This document shows, piece by piece, positions 1 through 23,269 of a stretch of 30,768 nucleotides of DNA. The position numbers were made by a program, and so were the translations under genes. Each line of letters opens with the position of its first letter. Positions within the stretch are counted from its first letter, which is position 1. The stretch covers positions 1-30,768 of the IMG/VR virus record IMGVR_UViG_3300027672_000050. One strand, written 5' to 3'. Below the pieces are notes generated by a model that saw only the letters and a program-made list of their open reading frames with translations, was not told where the DNA came from and ran no database searches. This DNA is from a virus (taxonomy: Duplodnaviria; Caudoviricetes).

Positions 1-3000
1 AACTGTTCATATGTTAAACCTGGTTTAAGTCTCTTAATAGCCGTCTGAGACGTTACGCCTTTACTTCGTTTACCTGTAGCTTCATAAAAAACTTTCATTA
101 AACTAGAAGGTATTTTTAACCCAGTACCTTTAACAGGTTTATATGCTTGAGCGTCTACAGTTGCTAGCTCAGGAGATACGTTTTCTGGTGGTAGTAATTT
201 AAACAAATCAGTACCCATAGATTTTATAACATCTTGGATTTTACTAGACTCTGATTTTATAACCATACCAACTTTAGCGTCAGGATAGTATTTCTTAATC
301 TTGTTTATATTGCTATCGTCAACGATTACATCTTTGTAAGTTAAATTGTCAGCAGGATCAGTTACTTTTAAAACAGGTATATCAAATATCTCAGCTGTTA
401 CTTCAGTTGCTAAGTCTTTTAAATTACCAAAAGTAGATTTATCTATGCTAACTTCACCAGATTCAACTATGTTTTTTATAGCTTCTCTGTACTTGTTTTT
501 TGATTCTTGATTTCTTACTAGTTCAATAGGTTTTATCTTCCTAGAAGTCTTGTCAGTAGCCACTTCTGTTGTTGTAGAAGTGTCAGCAACAGCTTCTCTT
601 ACTGAGCCAGCAGTTCCAGCTTCAGCATCTAAACTTTTATCAGCTATTTTTTTAAACTTCTCATAAGTTTGTTGAGCTTTAGGGGCAATATTATTATATA
701 CCCAAGTTGAAAATTTTGCTTCACTAGGATTGTAAGATTTTAGTATAGTAGGGAAAAAACTTCTTAAATAATCTCTTACTTCTGTCCTATCATAATCTCC
801 TTTTCTAGTATCGTATTTTATAGCGTTTAAAGCCATTGTATCAAACGAGTCAACTAGATCAGCCTCTGCAACTGCTTTTTCTTTAGAGCTAGTATCTTCT
901 GATTTTATAGTCTCTATTAGATTTTCGTTGTTATATACTTTCTTAGGTTTTGATTCTTTGTCTGAAGTTTCTTTTTTAACTGTAGGTTTTTTAGTTGACT
1001 CAGTTTTGGCTTTGGCTTCGTTTCGTTCAGCTGTTTTTATTTTGTTTTCTAAATTAGATTTAGCAGCATCGAAAGCAAATTCATCGTCAAAATCAAACTC
1101 ATCTAAAGCATCTAGCTCTTCTTTAAGAGCGTCTACTTGTTCTTTATTAGTCTTAGATAAAGATATATCGTTAATAGTACCTATCTCTGAGGACTTTACT
1201 CCTCGCTCAGTTTCTTGGTTTCTAATGGCTTCTATAACACTAGAATCAACTTTATCGTTTTTAAGTATACTATTATTGTATTGCTTTAAAAACTCAAAAA
1301 CATCTTCACCTGATTTAAAACTTATATTTTTATAACCTTGTATTTTAAGTAAATTTATTACAAACTTTTTAAGTTTTGTGAAAACATTTTCATCGTATTT
1401 TATATCCTTGTTAAGTATACCTTCAGAGAAATAAGTTAAAAACTCTGAGTCATGATCTTCAGTTTTTACATTTGCATCTAGTTGTGATTGAACCCAATTT
1501 AATTGAGATGAGTTTAATTTTTCTTTAAATTCTTTAACTATTCTAGATTGATTTTGTATATCTCCAAGAACAGCATTTAGCACAGGGTGCAACACCTCGT
1601 GGTTAGACACTGATACAGAACCTTGTTTAAGCGCTACTGTTTTATCCACGAATATTTTACCCGCTCCGATAAAAGCACCGTTAGATCCTCTAGCCTCAAT
1701 AGCGGCATCTTCTAAAGACATGTTTGTATTTTCAGAAATAGCTTTTATATAATCCTCAGTGCTATTAAATACTTGAGGACCTTTTTTAAATCCTAATTTT
1801 TTTGCTAAATCAGAAGCCGCTTTATTTCTTCTCTCAAACATTCTTTCGTTAGAGTTCCTGAATAAGTCTTTATTAACTTTTTTTATTTGTTTTAATTTTT
1901 GCTCCGCTAAGTTCTTTACAATTTCTTTTGTTTTTGGATTCTTAATCTTAGCGTTTAAGCTGTTTATTTCTAGTTTATTCTTAGCGTAGGCTTTAACTTC
2001 TTCAGAAGTCATGTTTTTTAAAGCATTACTATTCTGAGACTTAATATCAACTACTTTAGATATTTCTTCTTTTATAGCCTCGTCTATTAGTTTTGAACTT
2101 TCAACATCTGCTGTTTTTTTACTCTTATACAGCTCAGAAAGTTCGTTAGATGAATTTATTACAACCTGTTTTATCTCGTCAGGCATTAACACGTATTCAG
2201 CTGCTTTTACAGCGTTTACGTTTCTATTCTTAGCAGCACCAACACTTGTACCAGCGATACCAAAAACAGATCCAACAAGACCTTCTTCCGCTATTGATTT
2301 CCAGTCTTTAGATAAATCAAACTCTCTACTTAATCCAACGCCAGTATAGTTAGGTAGAGCGTCTAATAGCAGCGATGTAGTTTTAGTAGCTGCCTCAGAA
2401 CCAAATTCACTAGCAGTGTTTATACCTAGTTTTTTAATCAAACTTTCAGAACCACCTCTTATTAAATCTTCAGCAGCTTTTCTATTACCTTTATTAGTTA
2501 AAATTCCAGCTCTTTTTAATACACCTCTAGTAGCAATCTCAAAACCAGCTTCAATAGTTCCACTAGCTAAAGCATTAGCAACAAGATTAGCTGTGTTAAT
2601 TGAAGGATCTTTTTCAAACTCTTCGGTGAATTTAGCTCCAGCAGAAGAACCACCTAAAGCAACTAAGCCACCTATCCCTAAAGAAGCAGCAACAACAGAA
2701 GGTAAAGACTCTAGAGCACTACCAACAGCTCTTTCACCTGCTATTAAATAATTGCCTTCTTCTATGTCATCAATAATACTTTCATTTTCGTATTCTCTAA
2801 TACTTGGCTCTAGTTTTTGTATAAAAATTTCAGCAGCTAAACTGTGATTAAAATTCACAGCGCCTCTACTTTGTTTCGCTACTTTCATTAAAGCTTTTTT
2901 CTCCTCTGGAGTACCTTCGTAATCAGAATCAAAAGCGTTCAAACCAGCCTCCATGATAGAAAACTCTACCATATCTACAAAATCTACGCTATTTTTAACA

Positions 3001-3665
3001 AAAGAAGCAAAACCTCTAACAGTTTGAGCGGCATAGCTTTCTATTAAGCTTGGTTGTGTTGTTTCTTTTAATATCTTCTTAGCTTTATTATCTATTTCCT
3101 CTGGTGTTATCTCAAACTCTACTATACCATCAAAACTATATTGTCTTTCTATTTCGTTACTAGCAGCTTCTTGCAGTTTTATCTTTTCACTACTTTCTAG
3201 TTTTTCAAATTCATCACTAGAGAAATCATCTCCAGTAATAATATTTTGATCCATTTTAAATAAGTCATTTTTGTAGCCTTGTAAAACAGCTGCATCTGAT
3301 TTATTAACTTCACCTCCCTGTTCTATGTAATCATTTATTTGCTTTTCAGTTTCTTCTATGCTAGAAACCAATAAATCTCTTTCACTAAACTCTTTTAGTT
3401 CAGGTTCTTGTAACTCCGAAGAAGTATCTTCCAACTCTAAATCCGTATCTTCTGGTTGTACACCTGATATTATTGATGCTCTGCTTGGAGTTGCTACTGG
3501 CACTACATCCGCATCCTTTTCTGCAGCACCATTTTGAAAATCCTGTGTTTCTTCTTCTTGTACTAACTCCGCTTCAGGGTATTGCGTTAGAAAAAAATCA
3601 ATTGATTCTTGTGAGTATTCAGTTACATCAACTATTGTTCCGTCCTCTATTTTGTATTTTGTCAT
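1..3665 (-). CDS. Giant virion/ejection (polyvalent) protein, truncated at the window edge; Gly/Ala-rich membrane-type segment, zincin HExxH domain, sigma-2-like domain
   Basis: Not in the ORF track because no stop is reached. ATG at 3665 (MTKYKIEDGTIVDVTEYSQESIDFF...). The same frame reads HEVLH at 1601-1587, KFSTWVYNNI near 716-687 and ...AIKRLKPGLTYEQ at the edge, about 1221 codons. It lies after the tail and ejection genes, where giant virion-packaged proteins sit in crAss-like phages. Confidence 0.85.
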   Translation of the reverse strand, partial: MTKYKIEDGTIVDVTEYSQESIDFFLTQYPEAELVQEEETQDFQNGAAEKDADVVPVATPSRASIISGVQPEDTDLELEDTSSELQEPELKEFSERDLLVSSIEETEKQINDYIEQGGEVNKSDAAVLQGYKNDLFKMDQNIITGDDFSSDEFEKLESSEKIKLQEAASNEIERQYSFDGIVEFEITPEEIDNKAKKILKETTQPSLIESYAAQTVRGFASFVKNSVDFVDMVEFSIMEAGLNAFDSDYEGTPEEKKALMKVAKQSRGAVNFNHSLAAEIFIQKLEPSIREYENESIIDDIEEGNYLIAGERAVGSALESLPSVVAASLGIGGLVALGGSSAGAKFTEEFEKDPSINTANLVANALASGTIEAGFEIATRGVLKRAGILTNKGNRKAAEDLIRGGSESLIKKLGINTASEFGSEAATKTTSLLLDALPNYTGVGLSREFDLSKDWKSIAEEGLVGSVFGIAGTSVGAAKNRNVNAVKAAEYVLMPDEIKQVVINSSNELSELYKSKKTADVESSKLIDEAIKEEISKVVDIKSQNSNALKNMTSEEVKAYAKNKLEINSLNAKIKNPKTKEIVKNLAEQKLKQIKKVNKDLFRNSNERMFERRNKAASDLAKKLGFKKGPQVFNSTEDYIKAISENTNMSLEDAAIEARGSNGAFIGAGKIFVDKTVALKQGSVSVSNHEVLHPVLNAVLGDIQNQSRIVKEFKEKLNSSQLNWVQSQLDANVKTEDHDSEFLTYFSEGILNKDIKYDENVFTKLKKFVINLLKIQGYKNISFKSGEDVFEFLKQYNNSILKNDKVDSSVIEAIRNQETERGVKSSEIGTINDISLSKTNKEQVDALKEELDALDEFDFDDEFAFDAAKSNLENKIKTAERNEAKAKTESTKKPTVKKETSDKESKPKKVYNNENLIETIKSEDTSSKEKAVAEADLVDSFDTMALNAIKYDTRKGDYDRTEVRDYLRSFFPTILKSYNPSEAKFSTWVYNNIAPKAQQTYEKFKKIADKSLDAEAGTAGSVREAVADTSTTTEVATDKTSRKIKPIELVRNQESKNKYREAIKNIVESGEVSIDKSTFGNLKDLATEVTAEIFDIPVLKVTDPADNLTYKDVIVDDSNINKIKKYYPDAKVGMVIKSESSKIQDVIKSMGTDLFKLLPPENVSPELATVDAQAYKPVKGTGLKIPSSLMKVFYEATGKRSKGVTSQTAIKRLKPGLTYEQ

Positions 3666-3697: not shown

Positions 3698-5209
3698 TTA
3701 ATTATTTGACTTATCGTACGCTTCCATTATTTGCATGTTTCTAGTCAGTTTATTGTATGGCCCAGGGTTTTCTTCGTCCCATTTATCAGCAAATTTTTCA
3801 AAATCACTTTTTGATTTTTTACCTAGCTTTTCTTTAGTCCCTGCTCTAAGAGCTTCTGAAAACTGTTTTCTCATTAGCTTAGCATCTTTACCGCCACCAT
3901 CTCCAGCTTTTGAAGCTTTAAATAATCGAGTGTAAAAATCTATTCTACTATCTGGATCATTCATATTAAAGACTAAGTCTTCATTGCCATCGTAACCTTT
4001 TCTATCTGTTGCGTTTATAGTAATAGTATTATTTCCTTCATCATAAATACCTTCTACCCCTGTATACTCTATAAGCGATGACATAGGATTTTCTTCAACC
4101 TTGTCATAAAATGCTTTACCAGTTTCAATAAGATCAGGTTTAGTTGGAGCTTTCTTAGTTTCAACAGATCCAAATTTTAAGCCTGTATTTAAAGTCTTTT
4201 GAGCAAATTTATTAGCAGTATACTCTGCATATGCTTTTGTTATTACTTTTTTAGCGGCTATAGACTCAGGGCTGTCTTGAATCCATGTTTTTTGGTAAAC
4301 AATAGTATCTGCACCTTCTTTTCTTAAAACATCATTATACAAAACTATTGCTTCTCCTGCAGTCAGCGATTCTACTTGAGCCTTTGCGTAAGGTTCTGCT
4401 TTAATTAAGAAATTTTCTTTACTAGGTAATCTAGATTTCCTAAATTTATTAGAGCCTTTACCTTCCTCGATACTACTCTCTGGTTGACCTGCATAAGCAG
4501 GGGAGTTTGGATTTTTTAGATCCATTTCAGAAGCAGCTCTATCAGCCACTTCTTGCATATCAGAAGTTTCATCTGGTATTATTTGAGGGATAGATAAATT
4601 ATTCATATCAGGATTTAAAGAAGAACCGGCGCTTGAACCATTTTCGTTTAAAACATCTATTCTAACTTCTGCCGATAAACCTCTTGGATCAAAATTTAAT
4701 TTCTTACTACCAGGAGCTTGATTATAACCATACAATATATCGTTTTTATTAAGAACACCTGTATCAGCGTCTTTCCTTAATCCACCCATTACGCCTAAAC
4801 CTTTTTCTCTTGCGGCTACGTAATCTTGACCACCAGCTGTTGTATTAGCTAGCATGTTTTTAATCGTTGTTCCGCTATTATCCATATTGGTAATAAAAGA
4901 ATTCATCTCTCTAGTTCTTTTAGAAGGATTTATCTTCATGTACTCACCGTACTCGTCTAATAAATCATACATTTGATCAAGGTTGGTAGCTTTATTAGCA
5001 TTGGCTACTTGATTTAGTTGACCAGATATTCTATTGATTCTTTCTTGAGACTTAGCGACTACTTCCTCGTTTAGTTTAGCGCGTCTTTCGTACTCTTTTT
5101 TTTGTTCGCTAGCGTAATCAGAAAACGTACCTGCTAAAGATTTTTGTAAATCTCTTACGTACTGGCCAGACTGAGTGTCTACTATTTGTTTTGGGTTTCT
5201 ATAACTCAT
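3698..5209 (-). CDS. Hypothetical protein, probable internal virion/ejection protein (503 aa)
   Basis: Long ORF with an N-terminal coiled coil, between a pilot-like gene and the giant gene. Function inferred from position only. Confidence 0.6.
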   Translation of the reverse strand: MSYRNPKQIVDTQSGQYVRDLQKSLAGTFSDYASEQKKEYERRAKLNEEVVAKSQERINRISGQLNQVANANKATNLDQMYDLLDEYGEYMKINPSKRTREMNSFITNMDNSGTTIKNMLANTTAGGQDYVAAREKGLGVMGGLRKDADTGVLNKNDILYGYNQAPGSKKLNFDPRGLSAEVRIDVLNENGSSAGSSLNPDMNNLSIPQIIPDETSDMQEVADRAASEMDLKNPNSPAYAGQPESSIEEGKGSNKFRKSRLPSKENFLIKAEPYAKAQVESLTAGEAIVLYNDVLRKEGADTIVYQKTWIQDSPESIAAKKVITKAYAEYTANKFAQKTLNTGLKFGSVETKKAPTKPDLIETGKAFYDKVEENPMSSLIEYTGVEGIYDEGNNTITINATDRKGYDGNEDLVFNMNDPDSRIDFYTRLFKASKAGDGGGKDAKLMRKQFSEALRAGTKEKLGKKSKSDFEKFADKWDEENPGPYNKLTRNMQIMEAYDKSNN

Positions 5210-5219
5210 ATGTTATTAA

Positions 5220-6023
5220 TTAAAATTTGTAAACAGGTAATCCTGCAAAGCCTGGTGTTGAAGAATCTCTAGATTGACTAGTGTTTAACGGAGGAGGTGT
5301 AAACCCAGAACCAGTTGTTGTGTCAAAACCTTGTTTATCAAAACTATTAGCGGAACCAGATGCACTCATAAAGCTACCAGCAGTTGAAGCGAGTCCTCCT
5401 ACCATGCCTGTAAAAGCGCCTGTTCTATCAGCAGATGCTTGAGCTTCTATAGCTTCTTGACCAGCTATTTGAGCAGATACTCTATCCAATTGCGCTACTT
5501 CTCTACCTTCTCTTATACCAAACTCAAACTGTTTACCAGAAGCTTCTGCTTGTTGTATTCTTTGAGCTTCAGCCATTTTTTGTTGTTGCTGTCTTTCTTC
5601 TCCTTGTGCTCTTGCTTTTTCGTTTTGAGCTTCTTGAGCTTCTATACTAGCAGAAACACCTTTTTTACTCTGTAACGCTGCTTGAGCTAAAGCTGTCGCT
5701 CCACCGGCACTTGCGCCAGTAGCTCTAATAGTATCTAAAGTATTTGCTAAAGATATATCAGCTTGCTCTATTTGTATTTCAGCCGCTTGAGTAGCAACTC
5801 CTAACGAAGCATATGGATTTGTAATCATATCACTAAGATTAGTTACGCCTGCGTAAGGGTTAATTATTTCTTGTCTAGAGTTTTCTAGCGAAGTAAGTTT
5901 AGCTTGAAGTCTTTGTTTTTCACGAGCTGCTGCTTCTTCTTTTCTTCTAGCAGAGGCCATACCAAATAATCCACTGACTATTTGTACCCCTCCTGAAAAT
6001 ATTGCTGCTGGTCCTAATGGCAT
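5220..6023 (-). CDS. Putative DNA ejection/pilot protein (267 aa)
   Basis: Gly/Ala-rich hydrophobic N-terminus (GPAAIFSGGVQIVSGLFGMASA), Gln/Ala-rich coiled coil and a second Gly-rich hydrophobic patch (GAFTGMVGGLASTAG). This architecture is typical of the podovirus ejection protein that follows the nozzle gene. Confidence 0.65.
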   Translation of the reverse strand: MPLGPAAIFSGGVQIVSGLFGMASARRKEEAAAREKQRLQAKLTSLENSRQEIINPYAGVTNLSDMITNPYASLGVATQAAEIQIEQADISLANTLDTIRATGASAGGATALAQAALQSKKGVSASIEAQEAQNEKARAQGEERQQQQKMAEAQRIQQAEASGKQFEFGIREGREVAQLDRVSAQIAGQEAIEAQASADRTGAFTGMVGGLASTAGSFMSASGSANSFDKQGFDTTTGSGFTPPPLNTSQSRDSSTPGFAGLPVYKF

Positions 6024-6045: not shown

Positions 6046-7611
6046 TTAATAAGATGATTCTGAGTAGCTTGAAGACACTGCAAAAAGTTCTTTAAATCCT
6101 CCAGGATCTGTTCCCCCTATAAGTAATTCTACATTGTTAGATATTGTTTGTGGGGTGTTAACTTCTATATTATCACCTGTTATCGAGACAATTACCGTTC
6201 CAGTTGTTACACCTTCACCTAAAACAGCTTTACCAACTACTAAAGAGCCTTTTATTTGATTTAAAGGTATAGTTGTGCTATCATTAACAGACTGAGATGT
6301 TCTAGCTATAGTTCCGTCTGTAGACATCTCCACTGTTGCGTAAAAACCTTTTACACCAGAAACACTGTTACCCCATAATATCTCTTCGTTAAAAGCAGAA
6401 GAGTTGTTAATTATGTTAGCAAAATACTTATTTTCTTTTCTATTAAAACCTATTCTATACTTAACTCCGTCTTCATAATATACTCCTTCTTCATAGCTAT
6501 ATATAGGTAAAGCTACATCACCTAAAGCAGAGTTATGTTCATCAGTGTTAAAGCTTTTTACTTCCCACCCGCTGTTTCCTTCGTAGTTAACTGTATTAAA
6601 TACCTTAGGCATGCTAACTTTAGGGTTTAGTATTAACTTTACAGTAGAAGGAGATGAATGTCCATAAAAACTATTTCTATTAACACTATTATCATAATGC
6701 CTCCACAATCCTCCGTCTTTAACGCTATAGTAAGAGTTTCTTAAACTAAAAGTTTTATCAGGATTATATGTAAAGAAACTAGTCCAACCATTAACCTGCT
6801 CATCAAATGATAGTGTATTAAAATTATCAGTACTTAAAGCTTTTTTAGTGTTAAGTACATATTGTTTATTATAGACGTCCCAACCAGCAACAACACTACC
6901 AGGAACCTCTCCAGAGTCAATATTACTAAATTCATCTCTAAAATAATCATACATTTTATAGTTAGATATTTCAGTTATACCATCCATAGATAACCTAAGA
7001 ACAGCGTTTCTATCTCTATCTGTAAAATACTTTCTATAACCATAAGCAGCAAAACTACCAGGGTCTCTACTTATACCAAACTCTCCACCGTAAGGCATTA
7101 TTGTACCTATAGTAGTGTTAACATTTGTAATACTTCCACCACCTTCAGCGGAGTATATAGCGTCTTTATCTATTAACGCTTTAGATACTTTAGATTCTTG
7201 AAATATAAGTAAATTAGTGTCTTCTGCATATAGTCTCTGTATACTTCCATTAGCTGGGTCAGCTGATTTTATTATATCTTCACCTATAGAAAAAACATTA
7301 GTATCATTAACACCTGTTCTAGAATTATATATTCCAGAATATATTAAAGAGTTAATTCTATTAGAAGCGTTAGGCTCGTCTTCTACCAAGTAAGCTTTTA
7401 CACCATTACTAACAACGGTATTATTATAACCACCTCTTATTCTAGACTCTTCAACAACATAGCTAAAAGCTGGTTGAGTAGAAGATGCTACAGGGAATCC
7501 ACCTACACTATCAGGTATACCAGTAGAACCATTCCATATAGGTCGGTTGTTTTTGTTAGTTTTCTTCAAAAGAAAAGTGTTAAAATACTCTACTTCTATT
7601 ACTATGCTCAT
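6046..7611 (-). CDS. Tail nozzle/stabilisation protein, C-terminal part (521 aa)
   Basis: Motifs ESRIRGGYN, LIYSGIYNSRTGVN, GSIQRL, GEFGISRDPGSFA, YFTDRDRNAVLRLSMDGITEIS and GWTSFFTY resemble the beta-propeller C-terminal half of P22 gp10-like / crAss-like stabilisation proteins (recognised from memory). Confidence 0.7.
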   Translation of the reverse strand: MSIVIEVEYFNTFLLKKTNKNNRPIWNGSTGIPDSVGGFPVASSTQPAFSYVVEESRIRGGYNNTVVSNGVKAYLVEDEPNASNRINSLIYSGIYNSRTGVNDTNVFSIGEDIIKSADPANGSIQRLYAEDTNLLIFQESKVSKALIDKDAIYSAEGGGSITNVNTTIGTIMPYGGEFGISRDPGSFAAYGYRKYFTDRDRNAVLRLSMDGITEISNYKMYDYFRDEFSNIDSGEVPGSVVAGWDVYNKQYVLNTKKALSTDNFNTLSFDEQVNGWTSFFTYNPDKTFSLRNSYYSVKDGGLWRHYDNSVNRNSFYGHSSPSTVKLILNPKVSMPKVFNTVNYEGNSGWEVKSFNTDEHNSALGDVALPIYSYEEGVYYEDGVKYRIGFNRKENKYFANIINNSSAFNEEILWGNSVSGVKGFYATVEMSTDGTIARTSQSVNDSTTIPLNQIKGSLVVGKAVLGEGVTTGTVIVSITGDNIEVNTPQTISNNVELLIGGTDPGGFKELFAVSSSYSESSY

Positions 7612-10600
7612 AAATATATTTTTACTTGTTATCGCTATTAATTAATATTATGCGTTGTAAACTCCATCTTCATACTCAAAAGTAAAGTTAACAGGGTCTG
7701 GATTAAACACGGTGCTTTGTGTTATAGTGTAAGTAAATAGTGTCGGTATACACTGACCAGCTAAAAATTCAGTCCTTGCGGCTGACTCGTTTAATAGAAA
7801 ACTTTTCCAGGTGTCGCATGTCCTACCGGCAGCGTCGCCTCCTGCAGGAATAAGTATAACACCACCAGTTACAGGAGCACCTGAATTAGCTATCATATGA
7901 CCCCAAGGATCTGTTTGATTTGAGTTTGTTACGTCCACGTAATAATACCATCCAGCTGCTAAATCCACAGAAACACTTTCAAACAGCACTGCGTCTCCAA
8001 CGCTAAGACCTAAAGAACCTGCAAAATTATTAAAAGTAATAGTGTTACCAACAACGCTATTTATAAAATTTACAAATCGTTTTTCTATAAACACTTCTGC
8101 ATTGTCATCTAATAATTGTATATTGTTAGTAGTTATAATACTACCATTAATAGCAGTAATTACTGTTCCAGATGCAACACCGTCACCAGCAACAGTGTTA
8201 CCAACAGCTAATGATCCATTTATTTGTTTCAATGGTATATCATAACTAAGAACTGCTCCATCAACAAGAGCGGTTGCATTTTGAAGAACTGCAAATTGAT
8301 TAGGTTGAACAATGCCTGACAAGTTACTAACTGTGATCGTGTTTGAGTTAACTATTGAAGCCACTGTTGCAGCTCCATACACAGAGGTGTTTCTTGGTGC
8401 GATATACATTTTAAACCAAGTCCTAGTGTACGCGGCTCCACCTGACGTTTGCCCTAAAGTGCCATTTATAGTTTCTATTACAAAACCACTAACATCTAGA
8501 GCCATATTAATTTTTACATCTCTAAAAGTAGATAAAGAAGGATCACTTAGCTTTATTTTAACTGTATAATTATCAGCTGGCATGCTCGTGTTTTGATAAC
8601 CAGTATTAGTAATAGCTCCTGTAGAAGAGTTTATTGCAAAATAATTTGTATTTGTTCCAGTAGAAGAAACTTCGCTTTCCTTACTCCATACTAAATCTTG
8701 AGATCTGTTCAAAGGTGGATTTGAAACGTCTACCGTTGTACCGGCTGAGCCGTTATAACCAACTAAAGTTATAATATTCTGGATAGTTGGAGAAATGAAC
8801 TCTGTAGATATAAGACCTGTATAAGGAGGTGTTTCATCAATACTACTTAATATTATAGGATTTTCGTTAACTAAAGTGATTGTTTCGTTGAAAGAAGCTG
8901 TTTGACCGTTAACAGTTGCTGTAAAATTAAATTGAAAATTGTTTAAAGAACTATTAGAATTAAAATACACGTTATCCATATAGGCTTGTGTAGTGAATAT
9001 ATTATACTCTCCAGAACCTGTTGTTGTTTCTGTTAATAAAAAATAAGCTCCACTTGAGTATGATGTCTGTACATTAATACCTCCGCTAATAACAGACGCT
9101 ATGGTAAGTGGAGAGTTTATTTGAGAAACAGGTGTTTTTTGCTGAAAAGCATCAACTAAGTATATAGGCGCTGTAAATATCGCAGGATACACAGGCGGTG
9201 TTGCTTGCGTAGGCCATAGAGCCTCTGTAAAAGGCGTTGTGTTGTGGTCGTTTATACCAGCCGCAGCTAATCCATTTACATTAGTTGTTAATATACCTTC
9301 ATTTATCTCACCAATTAACCCCGTTGTTGATGTTTCCCAAAATATATCTAGAGAACTAACAACTGGTTCGGTTTCATAAATAGCTAATTGTTGGATACCA
9401 GGCGTCTTAAAAGAAGAAACCGTAGCTGAGTCTCCAGCTGTAACGTTTACAGAAAAAGTAGCATCAATAGTAGCAGCTGCTTTGTAAGATAATTGAGTAC
9501 CGTTAACTACAGCTACATCTTGATTCAAGGTGACTGTCATTGGTGCACCTGTGTTCAGTACAATATCTAAAACAAAAGTATTATCAGGTACACCAGTACC
9601 AGATAACGAGTCACCGATTTCTAATAATGAAGTCGTTTGAAGCTCTATTTCATTTGTAGAAGTACTGGCCTGCGCTGTTATTAAAGTGCCAGTTGCTGGT
9701 TGAGGTGTAAAACCACCTGAGTCAACTTTTAAATTTTCTGGTAAACCAGGGCCTGTTATATTGTCACCAACTTGTACGTTAGAAGTGTCACCGGATACAC
9801 CTATCAATCTTATCAAATCTGATGTAGCTGTTAAAGAAATTATACCAGTAAAAGTAAAAAAGTTAGTTGTTGCTATTTGACCAATTTTAGCATTAGTACT
9901 TATTTTAGCTATAAGAGGGTTAGAGGTAAAAGAATAAAACTGAGGAAAAAGGTTTGGTATTGGTGGATCTTGACTATTGTAATCAAACAACGTACTCATA
10001 TCTGCTATAGACGTCACAACATCAGTAGCTGCTCCAGGAAAATATTGCGCATTACCTTCTCCAACGTTAAGAATTATAGCTTCAGAAGAGTTTTGAACTC
10101 TACCAAAAAGCTGTACAGAGCTTCTATAGAGTTTCTGATCTGGCCCTATTTCTGTTAAATCTCTAGGTACTTTGTTAATATTGTCACTTGTTAAAGCTAT
10201 ATGAGAAGTATTACCTAGCTCTAGAGTGGTATCAGTTGGATAAGAAGCCATGATGCCAGGTAGGTATACATTGTAATATTCTTGTTCGTTTTGTTTTACA
10301 ACAACCTTGAAGGAATACCAACCTAAAGGATTATAACTATCACTATCAGACTCTCCATTATATACACCTGGCTCTCCGTTTACGTAGTTTTTAGTTGTTC
10401 CTATTTGTTTATTTATTGATAATTTTATAGAATTACCTAGCCAATCTATAGGATTGATGCTACTGTCTATGTATGGAGAAAACAATGTAGAACCAATAAA
10501 ACCATTACCGTTTATTTCTACATAACTTGAATTATTCGAAAGTATAGTTGTTGATTGTCTACCGTATCTATCTGATAAAACAATACCTACTTGATATGTT

Positions 10601-11973
10601 CTATTTGTTTTTAAAGAACTGTTAGGATGAGAAACAGAGCTTGTTGTGTTTATAGATTTAGAAACTGGTTCAAAGGTTAAGGTATCAGACAGTCCTAATG
10701 TAACATCTTTACTTAAGGTTATAATAGCACCGGTTATATCTGTTATAAAGGTTTCTGAAGGCACTCCAATAGCTATAACTACACTACCAACAGCTACAAC
10801 GCCACTAATGCTAGAAATTGATACTGAGTTGGAGCTTTCTATAGAGCTAACTACAGCTGAGCCATTGTTAAGATTAAAGCTTAATTTTTCTGATACTAAA
10901 ACATTGTAGTCTATAATAGATGGAGGAGTGTGCTTGTCTTGAAAATTACCATAAACAACTCTATTGCTTATAATTTCTTGAGAAAGCGCTTTTACCGGTA
11001 CTTTATCATACACTCTAGTAATTTCATTTGATGGTAATGTTTTATAAGGTTTTCTAGAGTTGTAAACGTAAACAAAAAAGTTTGGATCACCTATAGTTAG
11101 CTCCACTCCACTAGATATACTTTGCGCAGCGCTAAGCGTTATAACGCCGCTTGTTGTAGAGTTTTCATCATATTCAAAACTAACTACAGTTGGATAACCA
11201 GTTACACCAACTCCTTTTACTATTTCACCTATTTTAATACCTCCTTTTAAATTAGTAAACAAAACAGCTACAGACGCTTGAGGTGATGAACCAGTGGTGA
11301 AAACTCCAGAAGAATTTTCTATATCGCTTATACTAATTGTGTCTACGACCTTAATATTTAAACCTTCTGACTCTTTATATAATACATCAATACCAGTTAT
11401 TTTTAAAGCTTGATTAATTTCGTAATTAACGTAAGGTAGTGGTATTCTTAAATCTAGTTTATTAACTTTATTCTCAACAAAAGAAACAACAGTGCTTCTA
11501 AAAGCGTTTGATTCATCATTAACTTTATCAAGATTTTCTTTATCAGTGTACATGAAGTAACCATCTTGTTTAGGTATAAATGCTGACTGAGTAAAAGTAG
11601 AAAATAAAGATTTTTCTCCATCATCGTATTTAAACCTGTAAGCAAATCTAACAAATTTGTCTTCTAAAAAAGACGGATCACCCGCGTATTCAGGATCGTA
11701 ATATGGGTTTGAATTAAACACTAGTTTTTGACCAGCAGTTAAAGACGGTAGATTTCCACCTAATACAGTTATATCCCAATAAGAATTAACAGAATCGTAA
11801 ACAGCAGTGCTTAATGTAACTCCATTGACATTTACTATATAACCAGTAGTAGTATCAACATAAGAGACAGAAGCCCCTGTGTTGTAATTATCTGACGTTA
11901 CCACTAAATCTCCTTTAATGTTTTTTATAACTGCTGTTGTACTAGTCGAAGAAACAACTACTCCGGTACCTCC
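6112..11973 (-). repeat. Dispersed protein-level repeat: ~65-85 aa beta module (consensus I/L-x-x-I-x-G-x-L/I/V-x-V/I-G-x-x-V-x-G-x-G-V-x-x-x-T-x-I/V-x-x-I), about 8 copies
   Basis: Approximate copies at 6112-6309, 8086-8280 (inside 7975-8373), 9481-9696 (inside 9413-9858), 10669-10863, 11089-11307 and a divergent one at 11716-11973. Example pair: IPLNQIKGSLVVGKAVLGEGVTTGTVIVSITG vs IPLKQINGSLAVGNTVAGDGVASGTVITAING. Confidence 0.7.
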
Positions 11974-12627
11974 GTTAGGATAGTTTAAACTAGTAACATC
12001 TTTAAGTGTTGATTCATAATCACCAACGCTAGAGCCAGTTATAATACTAGGCTGATAAGTCTGTATAGCTTCATACGGATTATATTTAGCTACAGATATA
12101 TGATCTTCGCTTGTGTAGTAAGTGGGATTAGAAATGTTATTTTTATTTGCAATAGATACATTTATCTTTCTTGGTTGATTTCGGTTATCTGTCCAAAACA
12201 ATAAGTTTTCTAGTAAATTAACGCCATATATTGGGTTTGTTTTAGAAAAGTTTAAAAAAGAACCTTCAACTAAAAGAGTTGCTACATCGGATAAAGTATT
12301 ATACGAAAATATAAAATTGCTAGAAGATTTATTATAACTTGGATTTGTTAAATTTACTTCAGAATAATTTGTAAAAAATAAATACAAATTAGAATTAAAT
12401 TCGTCAGCTAAAAATCCAATACAACTTATATCACTAACCCCTGTTATAGCGCTGAAATCCTCTATACGTACGTTACCTAAAACACTTTCAAGCGCGCCAA
12501 CGTCAGAACTTTCTGATCTACTAACTTGAACATTTGAAGCGTTTCTATATTCTCCTGATGGTAGAAGTCTACTATCAAGATCTTTATTCATTTTAGACTT
12601 TATAAAAGCGTTTTTAACTTCTGCCAT
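7648..12627 (-). CDS. Tail nozzle/stabilisation protein, N-terminal part with inserted beta modules and a cadherin-like domain (1659 aa)
   Basis: N-terminus KMNKDLDSRLLPSGEYRNASNV, then LLFWTDNRNQPRKIN, FVRFAYRFKYDDGE, QEIISNRVVYGNF and RTYQVGIVLSDRYGRQS, motifs characteristic of crAss-like stabilisation proteins. Follows two tail ring genes. Confidence 0.75.
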   Translation of the reverse strand: MAEVKNAFIKSKMNKDLDSRLLPSGEYRNASNVQVSRSESSDVGALESVLGNVRIEDFSAITGVSDISCIGFLADEFNSNLYLFFTNYSEVNLTNPSYNKSSSNFIFSYNTLSDVATLLVEGSFLNFSKTNPIYGVNLLENLLFWTDNRNQPRKINVSIANKNNISNPTYYTSEDHISVAKYNPYEAIQTYQPSIITGSSVGDYESTLKDVTSLNYPNGGTGVVVSSTSTTAVIKNIKGDLVVTSDNYNTGASVSYVDTTTGYIVNVNGVTLSTAVYDSVNSYWDITVLGGNLPSLTAGQKLVFNSNPYYDPEYAGDPSFLEDKFVRFAYRFKYDDGEKSLFSTFTQSAFIPKQDGYFMYTDKENLDKVNDESNAFRSTVVSFVENKVNKLDLRIPLPYVNYEINQALKITGIDVLYKESEGLNIKVVDTISISDIENSSGVFTTGSSPQASVAVLFTNLKGGIKIGEIVKGVGVTGYPTVVSFEYDENSTTSGVITLSAAQSISSGVELTIGDPNFFVYVYNSRKPYKTLPSNEITRVYDKVPVKALSQEIISNRVVYGNFQDKHTPPSIIDYNVLVSEKLSFNLNNGSAVVSSIESSNSVSISSISGVVAVGSVVIAIGVPSETFITDITGAIITLSKDVTLGLSDTLTFEPVSKSINTTSSVSHPNSSLKTNRTYQVGIVLSDRYGRQSTTILSNNSSYVEINGNGFIGSTLFSPYIDSSINPIDWLGNSIKLSINKQIGTTKNYVNGEPGVYNGESDSDSYNPLGWYSFKVVVKQNEQEYYNVYLPGIMASYPTDTTLELGNTSHIALTSDNINKVPRDLTEIGPDQKLYRSSVQLFGRVQNSSEAIILNVGEGNAQYFPGAATDVVTSIADMSTLFDYNSQDPPIPNLFPQFYSFTSNPLIAKISTNAKIGQIATTNFFTFTGIISLTATSDLIRLIGVSGDTSNVQVGDNITGPGLPENLKVDSGGFTPQPATGTLITAQASTSTNEIELQTTSLLEIGDSLSGTGVPDNTFVLDIVLNTGAPMTVTLNQDVAVVNGTQLSYKAAATIDATFSVNVTAGDSATVSSFKTPGIQQLAIYETEPVVSSLDIFWETSTTGLIGEINEGILTTNVNGLAAAGINDHNTTPFTEALWPTQATPPVYPAIFTAPIYLVDAFQQKTPVSQINSPLTIASVISGGINVQTSYSSGAYFLLTETTTGSGEYNIFTTQAYMDNVYFNSNSSLNNFQFNFTATVNGQTASFNETITLVNENPIILSSIDETPPYTGLISTEFISPTIQNIITLVGYNGSAGTTVDVSNPPLNRSQDLVWSKESEVSSTGTNTNYFAINSSTGAITNTGYQNTSMPADNYTVKIKLSDPSLSTFRDVKINMALDVSGFVIETINGTLGQTSGGAAYTRTWFKMYIAPRNTSVYGAATVASIVNSNTITVSNLSGIVQPNQFAVLQNATALVDGAVLSYDIPLKQINGSLAVGNTVAGDGVASGTVITAINGSIITTNNIQLLDDNAEVFIEKRFVNFINSVVGNTITFNNFAGSLGLSVGDAVLFESVSVDLAAGWYYYVDVTNSNQTDPWGHMIANSGAPVTGGVILIPAGGDAAGRTCDTWKSFLLNESAARTEFLAGQCIPTLFTYTITQSTVFNPDPVNFTFEYEDGVYNA

Positions 12628-12636
12628 ATCTATATA

Positions 12637-13842
12637 TTATTTTATCCACTTAGATTTACCTCTCATTACTTGCGTTATTTCTTCTAATTTAATATTAGAT
12701 AATCTTATTTTAGCATTTCTAAGTTTAGCAACTTTTTCTCTTTTTAATCTATTGATAACATACTCAGGCTGGTTTGACTTAATAGCCATAACAGCATAGT
12801 TTATATAAGCATATAAAGCTTCTTCTGCTAGCTTAGGTATTCTAGTATCTAAATCACTTGATAAGCCATCTGATACATACTCTAAAACTATTAATTTATC
12901 TTTTAAATTACTAGAAAAAGACATTTTACCTTCCCTATCATTTATAGTAAACCAACCATTACTCTGCGAGGTTTGAGGATCTAAGCCGTATTGTTGACCA
13001 ACTCCTATAGAGCTAAATACACCATATGCATCATAATCAAGAATAACATTATCATTCAACGTGTTACCACTTATTAAATTGTCGTTAGCATTTCTCCATC
13101 TTTCCTCAGTTAGCGAAGTACCTTGTAAGTTTTCACCAAAATTATCCTGAGTTGGAATACCTTTACCGTCCTGTATAGGATTTTCATAAGGATTTGTAGT
13201 TAAGTTATTGGCTGGGTATATAGGTCTTTTGACACCTAGTTGATCTATCCAAGAAACACTAACATAGTTAACATAGTCTTGAGGTATAACAACGCTTAAA
13301 CTAGGTGGTATACTTAATTCTTGAGACTTTACACTTTTCAATGTATCGTAGCTAAATTCTTGTAAACCTCTTTTAGCATGAAATATTATATCTGTACGTT
13401 TAACACTTGGAATTAATTTACCAGCTCCTACGTAAGCGACTAAGAAATTATTTATAACATCACTAAGTTTAGTATAAGAATAACCCCCGTAATTATTTTC
13501 AACAGTTTGACCAAAAGCGTCTCTGTCTCCGTAATTACCTCCGTCTAATATTTTCAATTGAACAACTACACTAGTGTTAACAGGTAAAGCTGCTGTAAAA
13601 GTTACAACATTACCTATAACAGTATAAGCCGCCGTGTACTCAGTATAAGTAAAAGCACCAGGAGCCGAAGTGTAAAGTTTAAAATTGTTTAAAGCATAAT
13701 TTGTTTTAGAAGGATCATTGCTGCCAAATACTAAATTAGTATTAAAAGTAGTTGTAAAAGACTCATTGATAGCACCAGTAGCTGAGGTAAAGCCTTGAGC
13801 ACCTGCGTAATACTGTTCGTTAGTTTCTGTTATTAATGACAT
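12637..13842 (-). CDS. Tail tubular/ring protein (401 aa)
   Basis: Motifs DVINNFLVAYVG, FHAKRGLQEFSYDTLKS, PQDYVNYV and LEYVSDGL...IPKLAEEALYAYI. Position between the capsid and nozzle genes, as in crAss-like phages. Confidence 0.65.
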   Translation of the reverse strand: MSLITETNEQYYAGAQGFTSATGAINESFTTTFNTNLVFGSNDPSKTNYALNNFKLYTSAPGAFTYTEYTAAYTVIGNVVTFTAALPVNTSVVVQLKILDGGNYGDRDAFGQTVENNYGGYSYTKLSDVINNFLVAYVGAGKLIPSVKRTDIIFHAKRGLQEFSYDTLKSVKSQELSIPPSLSVVIPQDYVNYVSVSWIDQLGVKRPIYPANNLTTNPYENPIQDGKGIPTQDNFGENLQGTSLTEERWRNANDNLISGNTLNDNVILDYDAYGVFSSIGVGQQYGLDPQTSQSNGWFTINDREGKMSFSSNLKDKLIVLEYVSDGLSSDLDTRIPKLAEEALYAYINYAVMAIKSNQPEYVINRLKREKVAKLRNAKIRLSNIKLEEITQVMRGKSKWIK

Positions 13843-13845
13843 CTA

Positions 13846-14610
13846 TTAGCTTTTTTGATTTATTTCGTTTTGTTGTATCTCTTGAGCAGCTACTTGTATA
13901 ATCTGAGGATCTCTTATTATAACTCCAGAATAAAATAATATTCTAGTTACAACCTCGACTTGCTCTGAGCTGTTTAATTCAAAGTTTATAGAGTTAGCAG
14001 AGTCGTATATATATTGACCAACAGTACCTAAAGTAAAATTCCAAGCTATATTCCTAGGTGCTCTAAGTAAACTAGTTGAAACACCGCTCTGTATAGTGTC
14101 AGGTTTAACTATCAATTTATTAGACTCGTATAAATAAGTTGGAAAGCTTTCAGTTGAAGCCGTTAGTGGTGATCTTTGTATGTTGTAAAATTCGTTTCTA
14201 GACAACCTTTGTATCTCAGTTGATAAACCGTTTACAGGTGTAAACACAGGTGTGCCTAATTTATAAAAAGAAACTGCGCTACCTTGAGGTATCGAGCCAT
14301 CGTATATTATGGTAGGATTTTCAAAAACTGGATTTGTAGGTAGATCAAATTTTCCGTTAGCAAATGTACAATCACCTTCAGTTTTAAAAGGAGACATTTT
14401 CTCGTCGATACTCATTTGTCTATCTGAGTAATCATAATCTGATTGTGGCACTCGTAGTTGTTGGTTTAAGTCATCAAAATACTGCTCGAATATATCAAGC
14501 TGTACCTGTGTAGCTGTTCTATTAAACTCGTCAGGTGTAATATATCCACGCTGCTCTTTGTTTAGTATTAATAAAACTGTTTTATATACTGTATCTACGT
14601 TTATTGCCAT
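13846..14610 (-). CDS. Head-tail adaptor/ring protein (254 aa)
   Basis: N-terminal INVDTVYKTVLLILNKEQRGYITPDEFN and C-terminal ILFYSGVIIRDPQIIQVA resemble crAss-like ring proteins; position supports this. Confidence 0.6.
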   Translation of the reverse strand: MAINVDTVYKTVLLILNKEQRGYITPDEFNRTATQVQLDIFEQYFDDLNQQLRVPQSDYDYSDRQMSIDEKMSPFKTEGDCTFANGKFDLPTNPVFENPTIIYDGSIPQGSAVSFYKLGTPVFTPVNGLSTEIQRLSRNEFYNIQRSPLTASTESFPTYLYESNKLIVKPDTIQSGVSTSLLRAPRNIAWNFTLGTVGQYIYDSANSINFELNSSEQVEVVTRILFYSGVIIRDPQIIQVAAQEIQQNEINQKS

Positions 14611-14626
14611 TTTTATTTTTTATTAT

Positions 14627-14662
14627 AATATAACCGGCCACAATTAGCGACCGGTATATATT
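14627..14662 (-). terminator. Intergenic stem-loop, probable intrinsic terminator or processing site
   Basis: Minus strand ACCGGTCGC-TAATT-GTGGCCGGT (9 bp with two G-U pairs that work only on this strand), flanked by AATATA/TATATT. The U-tract is weak. Confidence 0.55.
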
Positions 14663-14674
14663 AATTATTACATG

Positions 14675-15505
14675 TTAATTCATGTTTTTCTCTATTGATC
14701 TAAAAACTTCTACACCTTCATCTGTCTTAAAATAAGAAGCCATAGCTGAATAAGGGTTTTCGTCAAAAGGTACTGTCATAAGTTTTCTACCATTTGATCC
14801 CCAGTTAAACGTTCTTTGGTCTTGAGATAGAACTATAATACCTAATTCAGAAGCTGTAATAGCTACGTTTCTAAGTTGTACATTTTCATCATTAGCTAAT
14901 TCTAAGAATAAAGATGGATTGTTTCTAGCAAACAATAATAAATCTCTTCTAAGCTCTTTAGAACTCATGCTAGATACCTTAGAACCTAACTCAACTCTTA
15001 ATATAGCTTCGCATTGATCTACATCCATTTCACGAGCAGCATTTAAAGCATCTATTTGAAGATCTAAAACATCTAATTCGTCTTCAGCTTTTTCAACCGC
15101 GCTAAACTCTTCGTATAACTTATTTTTAAGTGGGTGATAAAGAGATAATAGTTTTTGTAAATTTTGTTTTTGTTTTGGAACAGTTAAAACACCGTCCATG
15201 AACCTAATGTGACCCATTGTGCATTCTCCTTTTTGTTCATCTACTAGTGGAGAAGATTGGTTTGTAGCATATCTTATCTCTCTTTGTTTTCCAGACTTTT
15301 CATCAAAATACAATAAAGCATGTTTTCTAGTGTGTCTTCCTGGTATTGTAAGAGTTAAAGGGCTTTTATCTCCTTTTAGATAGTATATTCTATCTTTTAT
15401 TTCCCATTCAGGTTTAATTTCTTTTTTAATTGAAGTTGTTGTAACAACTTTTTCTTCTTGAGGAGCAACCTCAACTTTTTTTGCTGGAGCTTTTTTAGTA
15501 GCCAT
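14675..15505 (-). CDS. Conserved virion-module protein downstream of the major capsid gene (276 aa)
   Basis: Lys/Glu-rich disordered N-terminus, then REIRYATNQSSPLVDEQ and SSKELRRDLLLFARNNPSLF. Function unknown. Confidence 0.6.
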   Translation of the reverse strand: MATKKAPAKKVEVAPQEEKVVTTTSIKKEIKPEWEIKDRIYYLKGDKSPLTLTIPGRHTRKHALLYFDEKSGKQREIRYATNQSSPLVDEQKGECTMGHIRFMDGVLTVPKQKQNLQKLLSLYHPLKNKLYEEFSAVEKAEDELDVLDLQIDALNAAREMDVDQCEAILRVELGSKVSSMSSKELRRDLLLFARNNPSLFLELANDENVQLRNVAITASELGIIVLSQDQRTFNWGSNGRKLMTVPFDENPYSAMASYFKTDEGVEVFRSIEKNMN

Positions 15506-15527
15506 AATATGATATAATTTAATAATT
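15503..15527 (-). promoter_or_regulatory. Duplicated 25-nt leader, copy 1 (AATTATTAAATTATATCATATTATG)
   Basis: 24/25 identical to 18343-18367; both copies end at the ATG of a head-module gene. Confidence 0.5.
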
Positions 15528-15536
15528 TGAAAAGTG

Positions 15537-15578
15537 TGACAATAGCCTTAGTATATATATAGTAAGGGGCTAATGTCA
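15537..15578 (-). terminator. Second stem-loop after the major capsid gene
   Basis: Minus strand TGACATTAGCCCCTTACTATATATATACTAAGGCTATTGTCA, an imperfect inverted repeat followed by CACTTTT. Confidence 0.45.
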
Positions 15579-15585
15579 TATAAGA

Positions 15586-15626
15586 GTAATGATTACCCCC
15601 GTAGTTTCAACGAGGGTAAAAATTAC
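15586..15626 (-). terminator. First stem-loop after the major capsid gene
   Basis: Minus strand GTAAT-TT-TTACCCTCGT-TGAAACT-ACGGGGGTAA-TC-ATTAC, a 10-bp core stem with one G-U pair, 20 nt after the capsid stop. Confidence 0.6.
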
Positions 15627-15646
15627 ATTAATTTACTTTTGAATCC

Positions 15647-17107
15647 TTAGATTCCTTTGAATAATACAAAGTTGTTAGCAGCTTGAGTTACTAAACATCT
15701 TTCTGATAAGAAGTTAACTTGCATTGCATCTAAATCAGAAGTTGCAGCACCACCAGCAGAACCAGTTAACCAAGATTTCATTCTTCTATCATCTGATTGA
15801 GAAGCTCTATATCTTACATGTAAGAAAGGTCTTCTGATGTTAGTTCCTAAAATTTGATCATAAACAGTAGAAGTTCCAGCAGGTATTAATACACCTTCAA
15901 TAGAACTGATACCATCGATTCCACCACGAGTAGAAGCATCGTTTAAGTATTTCCAGTCAGTTTTGTAGAAGTCATAAGAACCTCTTCTGAATCCAGAGAA
16001 ACCTAAGTTAAGAGCCATTTCTTCAGAGTTTTCGAATAAACCAAAAGCAGTACCACCAGCGAATCCACCAGAGATAGCAGCTAGCATATCGTCAAAATCA
16101 AGAGATGTTTGTCTCTGTAAGAATAACATGTTCTCTTCAATAGCTCCTTGAGTATCTAAGTTTTTCAAGATGGCATCAAATTCGTCAAGACCAGCAGCAG
16201 CAGTAAATCCTACTTCTACGTTTCCACGAGCTTGAATAGCAGAGAATAAACCTTGAGTACCAGGTAATCCAGCTGAAGCGTTAACACCTGCTGCAATTTG
16301 GTTATACTCACCTTCTACCATACTCATTTCTAAGTAGTCTTCAAAACGTAATCTTGTTTCAGATTCAGCTTTTAAGTACCATAGGTATCCAGATGTTCCG
16401 TCTTCAGTTGCAACTTCTACCCATCCAATTTGAGCCATATCAGATCCAGAAACTTGGTACTGACTTCTGATGATCACAGGAGAGTTAGAGAATTGAGTTA
16501 ATTGAGGCTCTACACTAATACGAGCAGCTGAGTTACCAGCGCCTGCACCTAAGCTACTTCCTTTTGTGTAAGCAGAACCATATACAAATACTTTTAAACT
16601 TGGTATTACACCAACAGCAGTAGCTCCAGCTACAAATCCAGCAACTAAACCAGCACCATTAAAAGGAGCAACAGTAAAGTTACCTCCAGCACCAGCAGTA
16701 GTAGCTGTTACGATTGCTTTTACTTCAACACCAGTTGTAGGGTTTAAAAGAACTACAGTATCATTTATAGAAACAACGTTATTAACGTTAGCCGCTACAG
16801 TAATTACGTTAGTTGTACCAACGTTAGCTCCAATACCAATTCCTTGGTAAGAGATATGTAATCTGTTTTGCTCAGACCAAATTACTTGATCAGAAGTCAT
16901 TGGCATTTCAGCACCAACCATTTTTAAGAATCCAGATAACGTTCTGTTTCCATAACGCTCTACTTCTTGTTCGTAAATTTCAGGTAAATATTGTTGCGCG
17001 AAAGTTGCACCACCTGCACCAGCTGCGTTAAACTGTAAATAGTTTGTAGCTAGTAATTGTTGTGTTTGAGATGGTACTAAACCACCAAACTGAGGAGTTA
17101 AACTCAT
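15647..17107 (-). CDS. Major capsid protein (486 aa)
   Basis: Follows portal and scaffold genes and precedes a stem-loop pair. Motifs QQYLPEIYEQEVERYGNRT, SDQVIWSEQNRLH, GYLWYLKAESETRLRFEDYLEMSM and NLGFSGFRRGSYDFYK match the capsid family of marine Bacteroidota phages. Confidence 0.85.
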   Translation of the reverse strand: MSLTPQFGGLVPSQTQQLLATNYLQFNAAGAGGATFAQQYLPEIYEQEVERYGNRTLSGFLKMVGAEMPMTSDQVIWSEQNRLHISYQGIGIGANVGTTNVITVAANVNNVVSINDTVVLLNPTTGVEVKAIVTATTAGAGGNFTVAPFNGAGLVAGFVAGATAVGVIPSLKVFVYGSAYTKGSSLGAGAGNSAARISVEPQLTQFSNSPVIIRSQYQVSGSDMAQIGWVEVATEDGTSGYLWYLKAESETRLRFEDYLEMSMVEGEYNQIAAGVNASAGLPGTQGLFSAIQARGNVEVGFTAAAGLDEFDAILKNLDTQGAIEENMLFLQRQTSLDFDDMLAAISGGFAGGTAFGLFENSEEMALNLGFSGFRRGSYDFYKTDWKYLNDASTRGGIDGISSIEGVLIPAGTSTVYDQILGTNIRRPFLHVRYRASQSDDRRMKSWLTGSAGGAATSDLDAMQVNFLSERCLVTQAANNFVLFKGI

Positions 17108-17121
17108 AATTTTTGTTTTTT

Positions 17122-18345: not shown

Positions 18346-18367
18346 AATATGATATAATTAAATAATT
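18343..18367 (-). promoter_or_regulatory. Duplicated 25-nt leader, copy 2 (AATTATTTAATTATATCATATTATG)
   Basis: 24/25 identical to 15503-15527. Confidence 0.5.
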
Positions 18368-18377
18368 AAGTACAGCT

Positions 18378-22994: not shown

Positions 22995-23269
22995 TACTTA
23001 GATCTTCCTTCAGCAAAACCTCTAAAAGACTTTTCTTGTTTAACCTCTTCTTTTTTAGGATCAAGCATTTTCTCCTCTTCTTCGATACGATTAAGAATTT
23101 CAAAAGCATCAAATATAGCCAGTTTCTTAGTAGCTGCAGCATTTTTAAGTTTATCAGCAGATAAATCATCATCAGAATCAACAATAGCTTCCTTAGCTAC
23201 TTTAATTAACTCTTCAACTGCTTTCTGCCCAGCTAGGATTATATTCTTCTTGGTTTCCTTTGTGTTCAT
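22994..23269 (-). CDS. Small helical protein, putative terminase small subunit (91 aa)
   Basis: Coupled to terL by a TAATG stop/start overlap at 22994. Assignment by position only. Confidence 0.5.
   Translation of the reverse strand: MNTKETKKNIILAGQKAVEELIKVAKEAIVDSDDDLSADKLKNAAATKKLAIFDAFEILNRIEEEEKMLDPKKEEVKQEKSFRGFAEGRSK

Follow-up and report, generated by a model that had tools for sequence, protein, structure and literature searches.

Three ways are known by which phages begin transcription: they use promoters of the host, inject a polymerase, or inject enzymes that modify the polymerase of the host. T4 gp55 is a minimal phage sigma, and sigmas of this type are free proteins that serve the late genes and are made while infection is under way. 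PMC7824862 discusses minimal phage sigmas. In the main text of the study of polyvalent proteins with zincin-like metallopeptidase (MPTase) domains (PMC5512222), the transcription cargoes described are N4-like polymerases and host-modifying enzymes, and the word 'sigma' occurs 0 times.

The protein analysed here carries a diverged sigma-2-like domain inside a giant product of the virion block. It resembles the polyvalent proteins, as presented in that main text, in being a giant multidomain protein encoded beside virion genes, with an intact zincin, a swappable enzyme slot and, putatively, the kind of self-processing that has been proposed for such zincins (Iyer et al. 2017, PMC5512222). With the N4-like and crAss-like virion RNA polymerases (PMC13434306, 10.1101/2020.03.07.982082, PMC5512222) it shares the position of last giant gene of an ejection cassette, a zincin and a putative part in first-round transcription, but it has no polymerase catalytic motif and would borrow the host enzyme. 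Like the gp55-type sigmas it would act as a reduced sigma on host core polymerase at phage promoters but, unlike them, would arrive ready-made; gp55 is not named among the Foldseek rows listed.

The domain itself has the helical bundle, the (Y/F)DP..KFST(aromatic) core and the predicted beta-prime interface of sigma-70 sigma-2 (PF04542). It differs from it in lying inside a 2,000–3,600-aa protein, in scoring below the Pfam cut-off, in its eroded region 2.2 and in being followed by a 240-aa domain, no sigma-3 or sigma-4 having been detected. The nearest named counterparts, phi38:1 gp101 (Callevirus) and elemo gp18 (Elemovirus), occupy the same gene slot, match the family profile N-terminally and are annotated as structural; in contrast, no sigma-2 was detected in either, at limited sensitivity, and gp101 has no HExxH. 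A literature search, with supplements and subscription journals outside its scope, found no paper describing an embedded or injected sigma-2.

The phage and its giant protein

The window (the whole 30,768-nucleotide stretch of viral DNA that was analysed, IMG/VR record IMGVR_UViG_3300027672_000050) was assigned by Pfam and PHROGs scans to the late region of a marine podovirus-type phage. Its genes run in the order GroEL/ES, terminase, portal, capsid and muzzle-like genes, followed by a 267-aa, a 503-aa and a giant ORF (Table 1). In this late block GroEL is accompanied by a gene resembling GroES and by another, small gene that adjoins it (23214-23819 and 29126-30719, minus strand).

The original prediction had placed the phage in a Crassvirales frame. 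The capsid protein is closest, among GenBank phages, to those of ctfjg026, Maribacter phage Panino and the Flavobacterium elemo phages (44–48%), and then to Callevirus (39%). The 85 capsid-matching records comprised 68 Flavobacterium elemo phages, 15 Cellulophaga phages (those listed being Calle, phi38:1, phi40:1 and the phi13:2 group), Panino and ctfjg026, and Crass_capsid matched the window capsid with E 0.0024, under the Pfam cut-off. As the nearest capsid relatives are Elemovirus, Panino and Callevirus/Pervagoviridae, the phage was kept out of Crassvirales. No relative was found in the genome contigs searched for a prophage or host link, so it is from the capsid relatives that we infer a probable Flavobacteriia host. 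In one relative, the 99%-complete genome G002, the capsid gene was not recovered as a single frame in the ORF scan (L065:19404-19868 region); the split may be a frameshift, an assembly error or a region-boundary artefact.

The peptide on which the prediction was built was found letter for letter in the minus-strand ORF running from 3665 to 3, which is open at the window edge. It had been placed at 930..627; the peptide is indeed there, but its true span is nt 923-627 (aa 915-1013), 930 being 7 nt too far and in a frame with stops. KFSTW begins at aa 984 (nt 716). The full length of the protein, 2,290 aa, was obtained from a metagenome contig (L007) that is identical across the sigma-2-like domain.

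Table 1 Features of the giant protein and of the surrounding late genes, with positions in the window
Feature	Position	Strand	Basis
Sigma-2-like domain (regions 1.2 and 2.1-2.4, SLD-type motif at end), aa 911-1015	621..935	-	Profile, AlphaFold, Foldseek, co-fold
Zincin-like metallopeptidase domain (approximate bounds) with HEVLH at aa 689-693 (nt 1601-1587) and E741 as third ligand	1266..1733	-	
ISLSK linker motif, aa 834-838, candidate processing site	1152..1166	-	
Acidic helical hairpin, aa 840-889, long-linker members only	999..1148	-	Model pLDDT >90
Disordered linker from SLD motif, aa 1009-1038	552..641	-	pLDDT <50; conservation
Start of conserved ~240-aa alpha/beta domain, aa 1043-1283	3..539	-	pLDDT ~90
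Gly/Ala-rich hydrophobic helices, as in ejected proteins (putative role)	2631..2729	-	Hydropathy scan, peak 1.4
Giant modular protein of polyvalent type, of whose 2,290 aa the first 1,221 are in the window; closes the virion block	3..3665	-	
503-aa gene, middle of putative ejection cassette	3698..5209	-	Position as phi38:1 gp100, elemo gp19
Gly/Gln-rich 267-aa gene, first of putative three-gene ejection cassette	5220..6023	-	
Muzzle-like and other structural genes, major capsid protein, portal, large terminase	6046..22994	-	Pfam, PHROGs

A tblastn search of the giant protein against GenBank phages gave no match. Locus searches yielded 59 long reading frames with the sigma-2-like domain, which is more than a chance feature. 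A profile from an alignment of 17 relatives was run against 1.84 billion representatives and recovered 83 proteins at E<=0.001, from which two repeat-driven matches were dropped. There are 45 members of at least 2,000 aa; the shorter ones look like fragments.

The architecture is that of a polyvalent-type protein: a large multidomain chain beside virion genes, with variable domains. An HExxH motif lies 143–262 aa upstream of the sigma-2-like domain in 40 of the 45 giant proteins. In 51 aligned rows the zincin residues are kept at H689 (45), E690 (43), H693 (44) and E741 (44), the remainder being nearly all gaps. The zincin that had been predicted in the same chain is thus present, with HExxH and the downstream Glu intact in 43–45 of 51 rows. 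In the full-length protein, linker motifs of the ISLSK type come again at aa ~1283 and ~1618 and enclose a variable slot (L007 aa ~1290-1620) which, judged from pattern matches only, holds a HAD-type motif in 27/45, an EH nuclease-like motif in 13/45 and a PWC motif in 3/45. Beyond it, L007 aa ~1630-2260 form a strongly conserved 630-aa helical C-terminal domain without a Pfam family, which is also present at E<1e-200 in five extra genomes (G004, G005, G008, G010 and G011). The columns of the acidic hairpin have an occupancy of 0.37–0.49 in the family alignment; a role in mimicking DNA, in the manner of sigma region 1.1, is speculation. Among 34 distinct close relatives, four carry an insertion of 42 aa in the loop that precedes KFSTW. 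The insertion is near-identical among L004, L028, L052 and L054, whose alleles otherwise differ, suggesting recent exchange.

The sigma-2-like domain

The window sequence alone has no Pfam Sigma70_r2 match. Pfam and PHROGs scans of the window and 14 giant homologues showed no sigma family, and single-sequence and shallow-profile searches of the PDB returned nothing. Sigma70_r2 was matched by only 6 of 60 family members, with a best E of 0.0058, under the cut-off; YidB and VG15 scored similarly, and were rejected as identities because their matches are likewise under the cut-off and the fold search gives them no support. As a direct Pfam match is absent, the case for sigma is made by the family profile together with the fold and co-fold results described below.

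When a profile of 60 sequences was searched against 177,635 PDB sequences, the top match was a sigma factor, 8x6g_H, with E=9.1e-5 over 78 aligned positions; lower rows were short Kelch matches (E ~0.006-0.009) and RpoS (E=1.4). ESM Atlas features of the domain led to Sigma70_r2 clusters at 0.94, with PF04542 in 41% of members. The AlphaFold model is a helical bundle with pLDDT 88, and the top Foldseek rows for it are mostly sigmas, each of them weak (E 0.39-1.8), no match reaching E<=0.001. The nearest structures are 8x6g_H (S. aureus SigB), 7lq4_A (WhiG complex) and 8b3z (SigE N-terminal domain). Of the fold and Sigma70_r2 check that had been proposed for the domain, the helical bundle and the sigma rows stand, while the Pfam match and a Foldseek value of E<=0.001 were not obtained.

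A small helical bundle might resemble sigma-2 by chance, and the lack of a significant Pfam or Foldseek value fits such a coincidence, as do the similar scores of other Pfam families for single members. It is nevertheless very unlikely, given a profile E of 9.1e-5 with alignment at the level of motifs, and given that Atlas, fold and co-fold all indicate sigma independently of Pfam. We regard homology of the domain to sigma-2 of the sigma-70 family as close to certain, and this central claim of the original prediction is borne out by the 60-sequence profile, Atlas, AlphaFold and Foldseek.

The KFSTW core, expected to be conserved in homologous giant proteins, is conserved: of 60 aligned domains, 53 retain F985, and S986 and T987 are each found in 58, and the W column is an aromatic position (Y20, F19, W14, H4). 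An SLD had been expected downstream, and an SLD-type motif follows the domain directly. On the DNA-facing side, position 978 is aromatic in 60/60, P980 is kept in 52 and Y1001 in 57. Where sigma 2.2 has its Asp, the aligned column is E, D or N in 57/60, whereas the column aligned to the SigB Gln is S in 30, D in 12 and A in 11 of 60, and the next column is E in only 10/60. The region 2.2 signature, of the DLIQE type, thus appears from the alignment to have drifted, and the strongest conservation is on the DNA-facing 2.3 side rather than on the core-binding 2.2 side.

What follows the domain differs from a complete sigma factor. No sigma-3 domain was found: the SLD motif and a disordered linker, which may resemble sigma region 3.2, come straight after sigma-2. 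A region-4 HTH had been looked for in the continuation of the gene, and an HTH-like stretch is visible there by eye only. The suspected sigma-4 was rejected, as Atlas gave it no support, hhalign of the downstream region against a phage sigma alignment and L061 gave E>=0.15 and Foldseek gave no significant match. Because the SLD motif, the linker and the 240-aa domain follow without a sigma-4 match, we describe a sigma-2 module and not a full sigma-70 factor. The 240-aa domain has no ESM Atlas match, and the three-domain model has no significant Foldseek match; it is a candidate for the DNA-reading partner of sigma-2.

Descent of the embedded domain from the phage's own separate sigma was also considered and rejected, there being no match between the two. 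L061 is a true Sigma70_r2 protein and was matched by hhalign (probability 94, E 2e-7), but it had been retrieved via the shared motif, which biases the match, and the result was not counted as evidence.

Proposed delivery, release and docking

The last three genes share their slot with phi38:1 gp99-101 and elemo gp20-18. At least four of these six proteins carry a structural label, among elemo gp20, elemo gp18 and the three phi38:1 proteins, elemo gp19 being unlabelled, and the prediction that the gene lies at a virion-gene position agrees with the annotation of the slot as 'structural' in phi38:1. Sequence comparison of the 503-aa gene with phi38:1 gp100 and elemo gp19 found no match. The profile values for the N-terminal parts of gp101 and gp18 may be inflated, since the matched regions are rich in coiled coil; gp101 also has a Gly/Ala-rich hydrophobic stretch similar to that in the window. 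The main texts of PMC13288928 and PMC5335546 do not name phi38:1 gp101, and that of PMC5335546 does not contain 'sigma'.

FS[KRE] motifs, as candidate processing sites, lie around the domain. Some 320–420 aa after the domain start, at the end of the 240-aa domain, they occur in 24/45 members against 2.7 expected, and within 100 aa before the sigma-2 domain in 9/45 against 2.7 expected. Before the C-terminal domain they occur in 14 of the 30 members with an anchor-pattern match, two or three of these anchors being misplaced. By eye, many short-linker members also show looser variants a few residues ahead of sigma-2.

The domain was co-folded with beta-prime of F. johnsoniae (RPOC_FLAJ1 1-370), the fit to Flavobacterium polymerase having been put forward as a check. 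The score was 0.78, against 0.28 for the best of three controls, and the pass mark is one that 116 of 157 solved complexes attain, as do 2 of 215 mismatched pairs. Three runs shared >=89% of contacts, with partner pLDDT >=83. The contacts are made mainly by domain residues 16-28 and 51-63 with beta-prime 272-319, the clamp-helix region; on the sigma side they involve helices 2.2 and 1.2/2.1. This is the usual arrangement of sigma-2 and the clamp helices. The predicted fit agrees with the expectation; as sigma-core complexes have already been solved, the pass may show likeness (memory) rather than binding. Real binding of the domain to core polymerase is, on this model, probable.

The domain might instead be a repurposed nucleic-acid-binding or structural module, which grips single-stranded or forked DNA at ejection, or serves as a spacer, and makes no contact with RNA polymerase. 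The loss of the DLIQE-type signature with retention of the aromatic/Ser/Thr pocket would suit such a role, as would tolerance of the 42-aa insertion and the extreme divergence or absence of the domain across the wider clade. It is at odds with the acidic or Asn residue kept at the sigma 2.2 Asp column and with a confident, canonical-looking interface in three co-fold runs, which may itself be memory, and we think it unlikely.

It had also been suggested that the module might serve a virion polymerase, and crAss-like phages do package a polymerase with a DFDxD motif (10.1101/2020.03.07.982082). That the domain is an initiation factor for a phage-encoded enzyme of this kind is scarcely credible here: the motif D[FYLIV]D[GIL]D is in 0/59 homologous frames and in 1/45 representatives, there in an unconserved stretch, and no RNA polymerase family was found among the 33 proteins of G002 scanned. 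As this genome has no recognisable polymerase, the need for the host enzyme was counted in favour of an injected sigma.

A candidate early promoter and its possible readers

Relatives of the phage contain clustered, co-oriented copies of ACAAnnnAAATACGA-N9-GATAATA, 5–10 of them ahead of small, probably early genes; the clustered motif is new here. G002:44222-48516 has six co-oriented copies of ACAAnnnAAATAC(G/A)A-N9-GATAATA in 4.3 kb, in a small-gene region before the replication genes, and G001 (129.5 kb) has clusters of 8 and 5 within its first 77 kb (13190-19082 and 75165-76593). Against shuffles, matches number 8 vs 3.7 in G002 and 14 vs 3.1 in G001. An IMG/VR scan gave at least 171 loci (L076-L246), and the motif is estimated to occur in ~1,700 stored IMG/VR stretches. 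Among the matches listed, the spacer is exactly 9 bp in 150/194, and an ACAA upstream of the motif, outside the search pattern, is 86–92% conserved over 148 sites. The motif looks like a phage-specific early promoter, as a candidate. It is missing from the window, which does not include the early region. No exact match occurs in Panino, ctfjg026 or elemoF; the single one in phi38:1 has a 10-bp spacer and falls within a gene. In G010 a motif cluster is repeated at both ends.

TAnnTTTG is the consensus of the Bacteroidetes promoter element. These elements were tried as an alternative and rejected, as they are not enriched in G001 (112 vs 96 expected) or G002 (101 vs 90).

The genomes with the motif also encode a separate sigma. 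In G002 it is a single canonical-looking protein of 255 aa (L067:13091-13855) beside recombination and primase genes; the separate phage sigma keeps DLIQ, and its family is very large, with at least 8,000 matches, all of the 8,000 candidates scored (P0097-P0216 among the proteins retrieved). Such a sigma is encoded in 7/7 motif-bearing genomes inspected (G001, G002, G004, G005, G008, G010 and G011). The separate sigma genes of G001 are at 20865 and 83144; these two genes 62 kb apart and the two motif clusters suggest that the record (L005) may be two related genomes joined.

Either the embedded sigma-2 or the separate sigma could read the motif. Of 25 contigs searched, sigma-2 in a long frame was found in 4/17 with the 9-bp motif and 0/8 with other spacers, one of the latter eight matching sigma-2 in a 263-aa frame. 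Five complete motif-bearing genomes previously scored negative (G004, G005, G008, G010 and G011) were inspected directly. Each of them encodes a capsid homologue and the separate sigma, along with the zincin and C-terminal portions of the giant protein. Sigma-2 is matched weakly in G011, and G005 and G011 have the 240-aa domain. The other four, G004, G005, G008 and G010, gave no significant sigma-2 match (Pfam 0/8 segments; iterated profile not convincingly above reversed controls), although inspection by eye shows, at the expected place behind the zincin, a sigma-2-like stretch whose end is near an S(I/L)D-type motif. Four reference phages do not discriminate, since motif cluster, sigma-2-like domain and separate sigma are absent from them together. 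Gene order favours the embedded factor, because in five genomes (G002, G004, G005, G008 and G011) the separate sigma gene lies downstream of the motif cluster and in the same orientation.

The same data bear on a possibility in which the injected protein grips beta-prime without choosing promoters, as a decoy that displaces host sigmas or a tether that brings in the variable enzyme, while a separate or host sigma reads the motif. The co-fold pass without any sigma-3 or sigma-4, the canonical separate sigma in all seven genomes and the enzyme motifs of the variable slot can be explained in this way. We find it doubtful nonetheless: the best-kept residues are in the DNA-facing 2.3 region and not the core-binding 2.2, a phage without its own polymerase would gain little by blocking the core, and a separate sigma whose gene lies downstream of the motif cluster cannot fire that cluster first.

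The reading that we prefer, at a probability of roughly 45%, is that the diverged sigma-2 in the giant protein is injected, released by the zincin and works at the motif as a minimal sigma for the host polymerase. The modular protein would be packed in the virion and injected with the DNA. Its own zincin would cut at FS[KRE]-type linkers, freeing a piece of ~370–450 aa that contains sigma-2, the linker and the 240-aa domain; in short-linker members this piece would have its N-terminus where free alternative sigmas begin. Sigma-2 is predicted to dock on beta-prime of the host RNA polymerase and would open GATAATA, while the 240-aa domain, in place of sigma-4, would read the upstream ACAAnnnAAATACGA block. 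The motif promoters would then drive small early genes and the downstream canonical phage sigma, which would take over.

More tentatively, and short of an even chance, a widespread uncultured marine clade of podoviruses, of Flavobacteriia type, may start infection in just this manner: with a pre-made sigma cut from an ejection polyprotein, in which a new DNA-binding domain replaces sigma-4, steering host polymerase to ACAAnnnAAATACGA-N9-GATAATA and launching a second sigma. A bounded protein fragment and a candidate promoter are both halves of a bench test, for which a phage isolate is not needed. The motif marks the early region of the clade and is worth reporting whichever factor reads it. 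If the proposal is true, an injected sigma would give phages a third means of starting an infection, next to host promoters and an injected polymerase.
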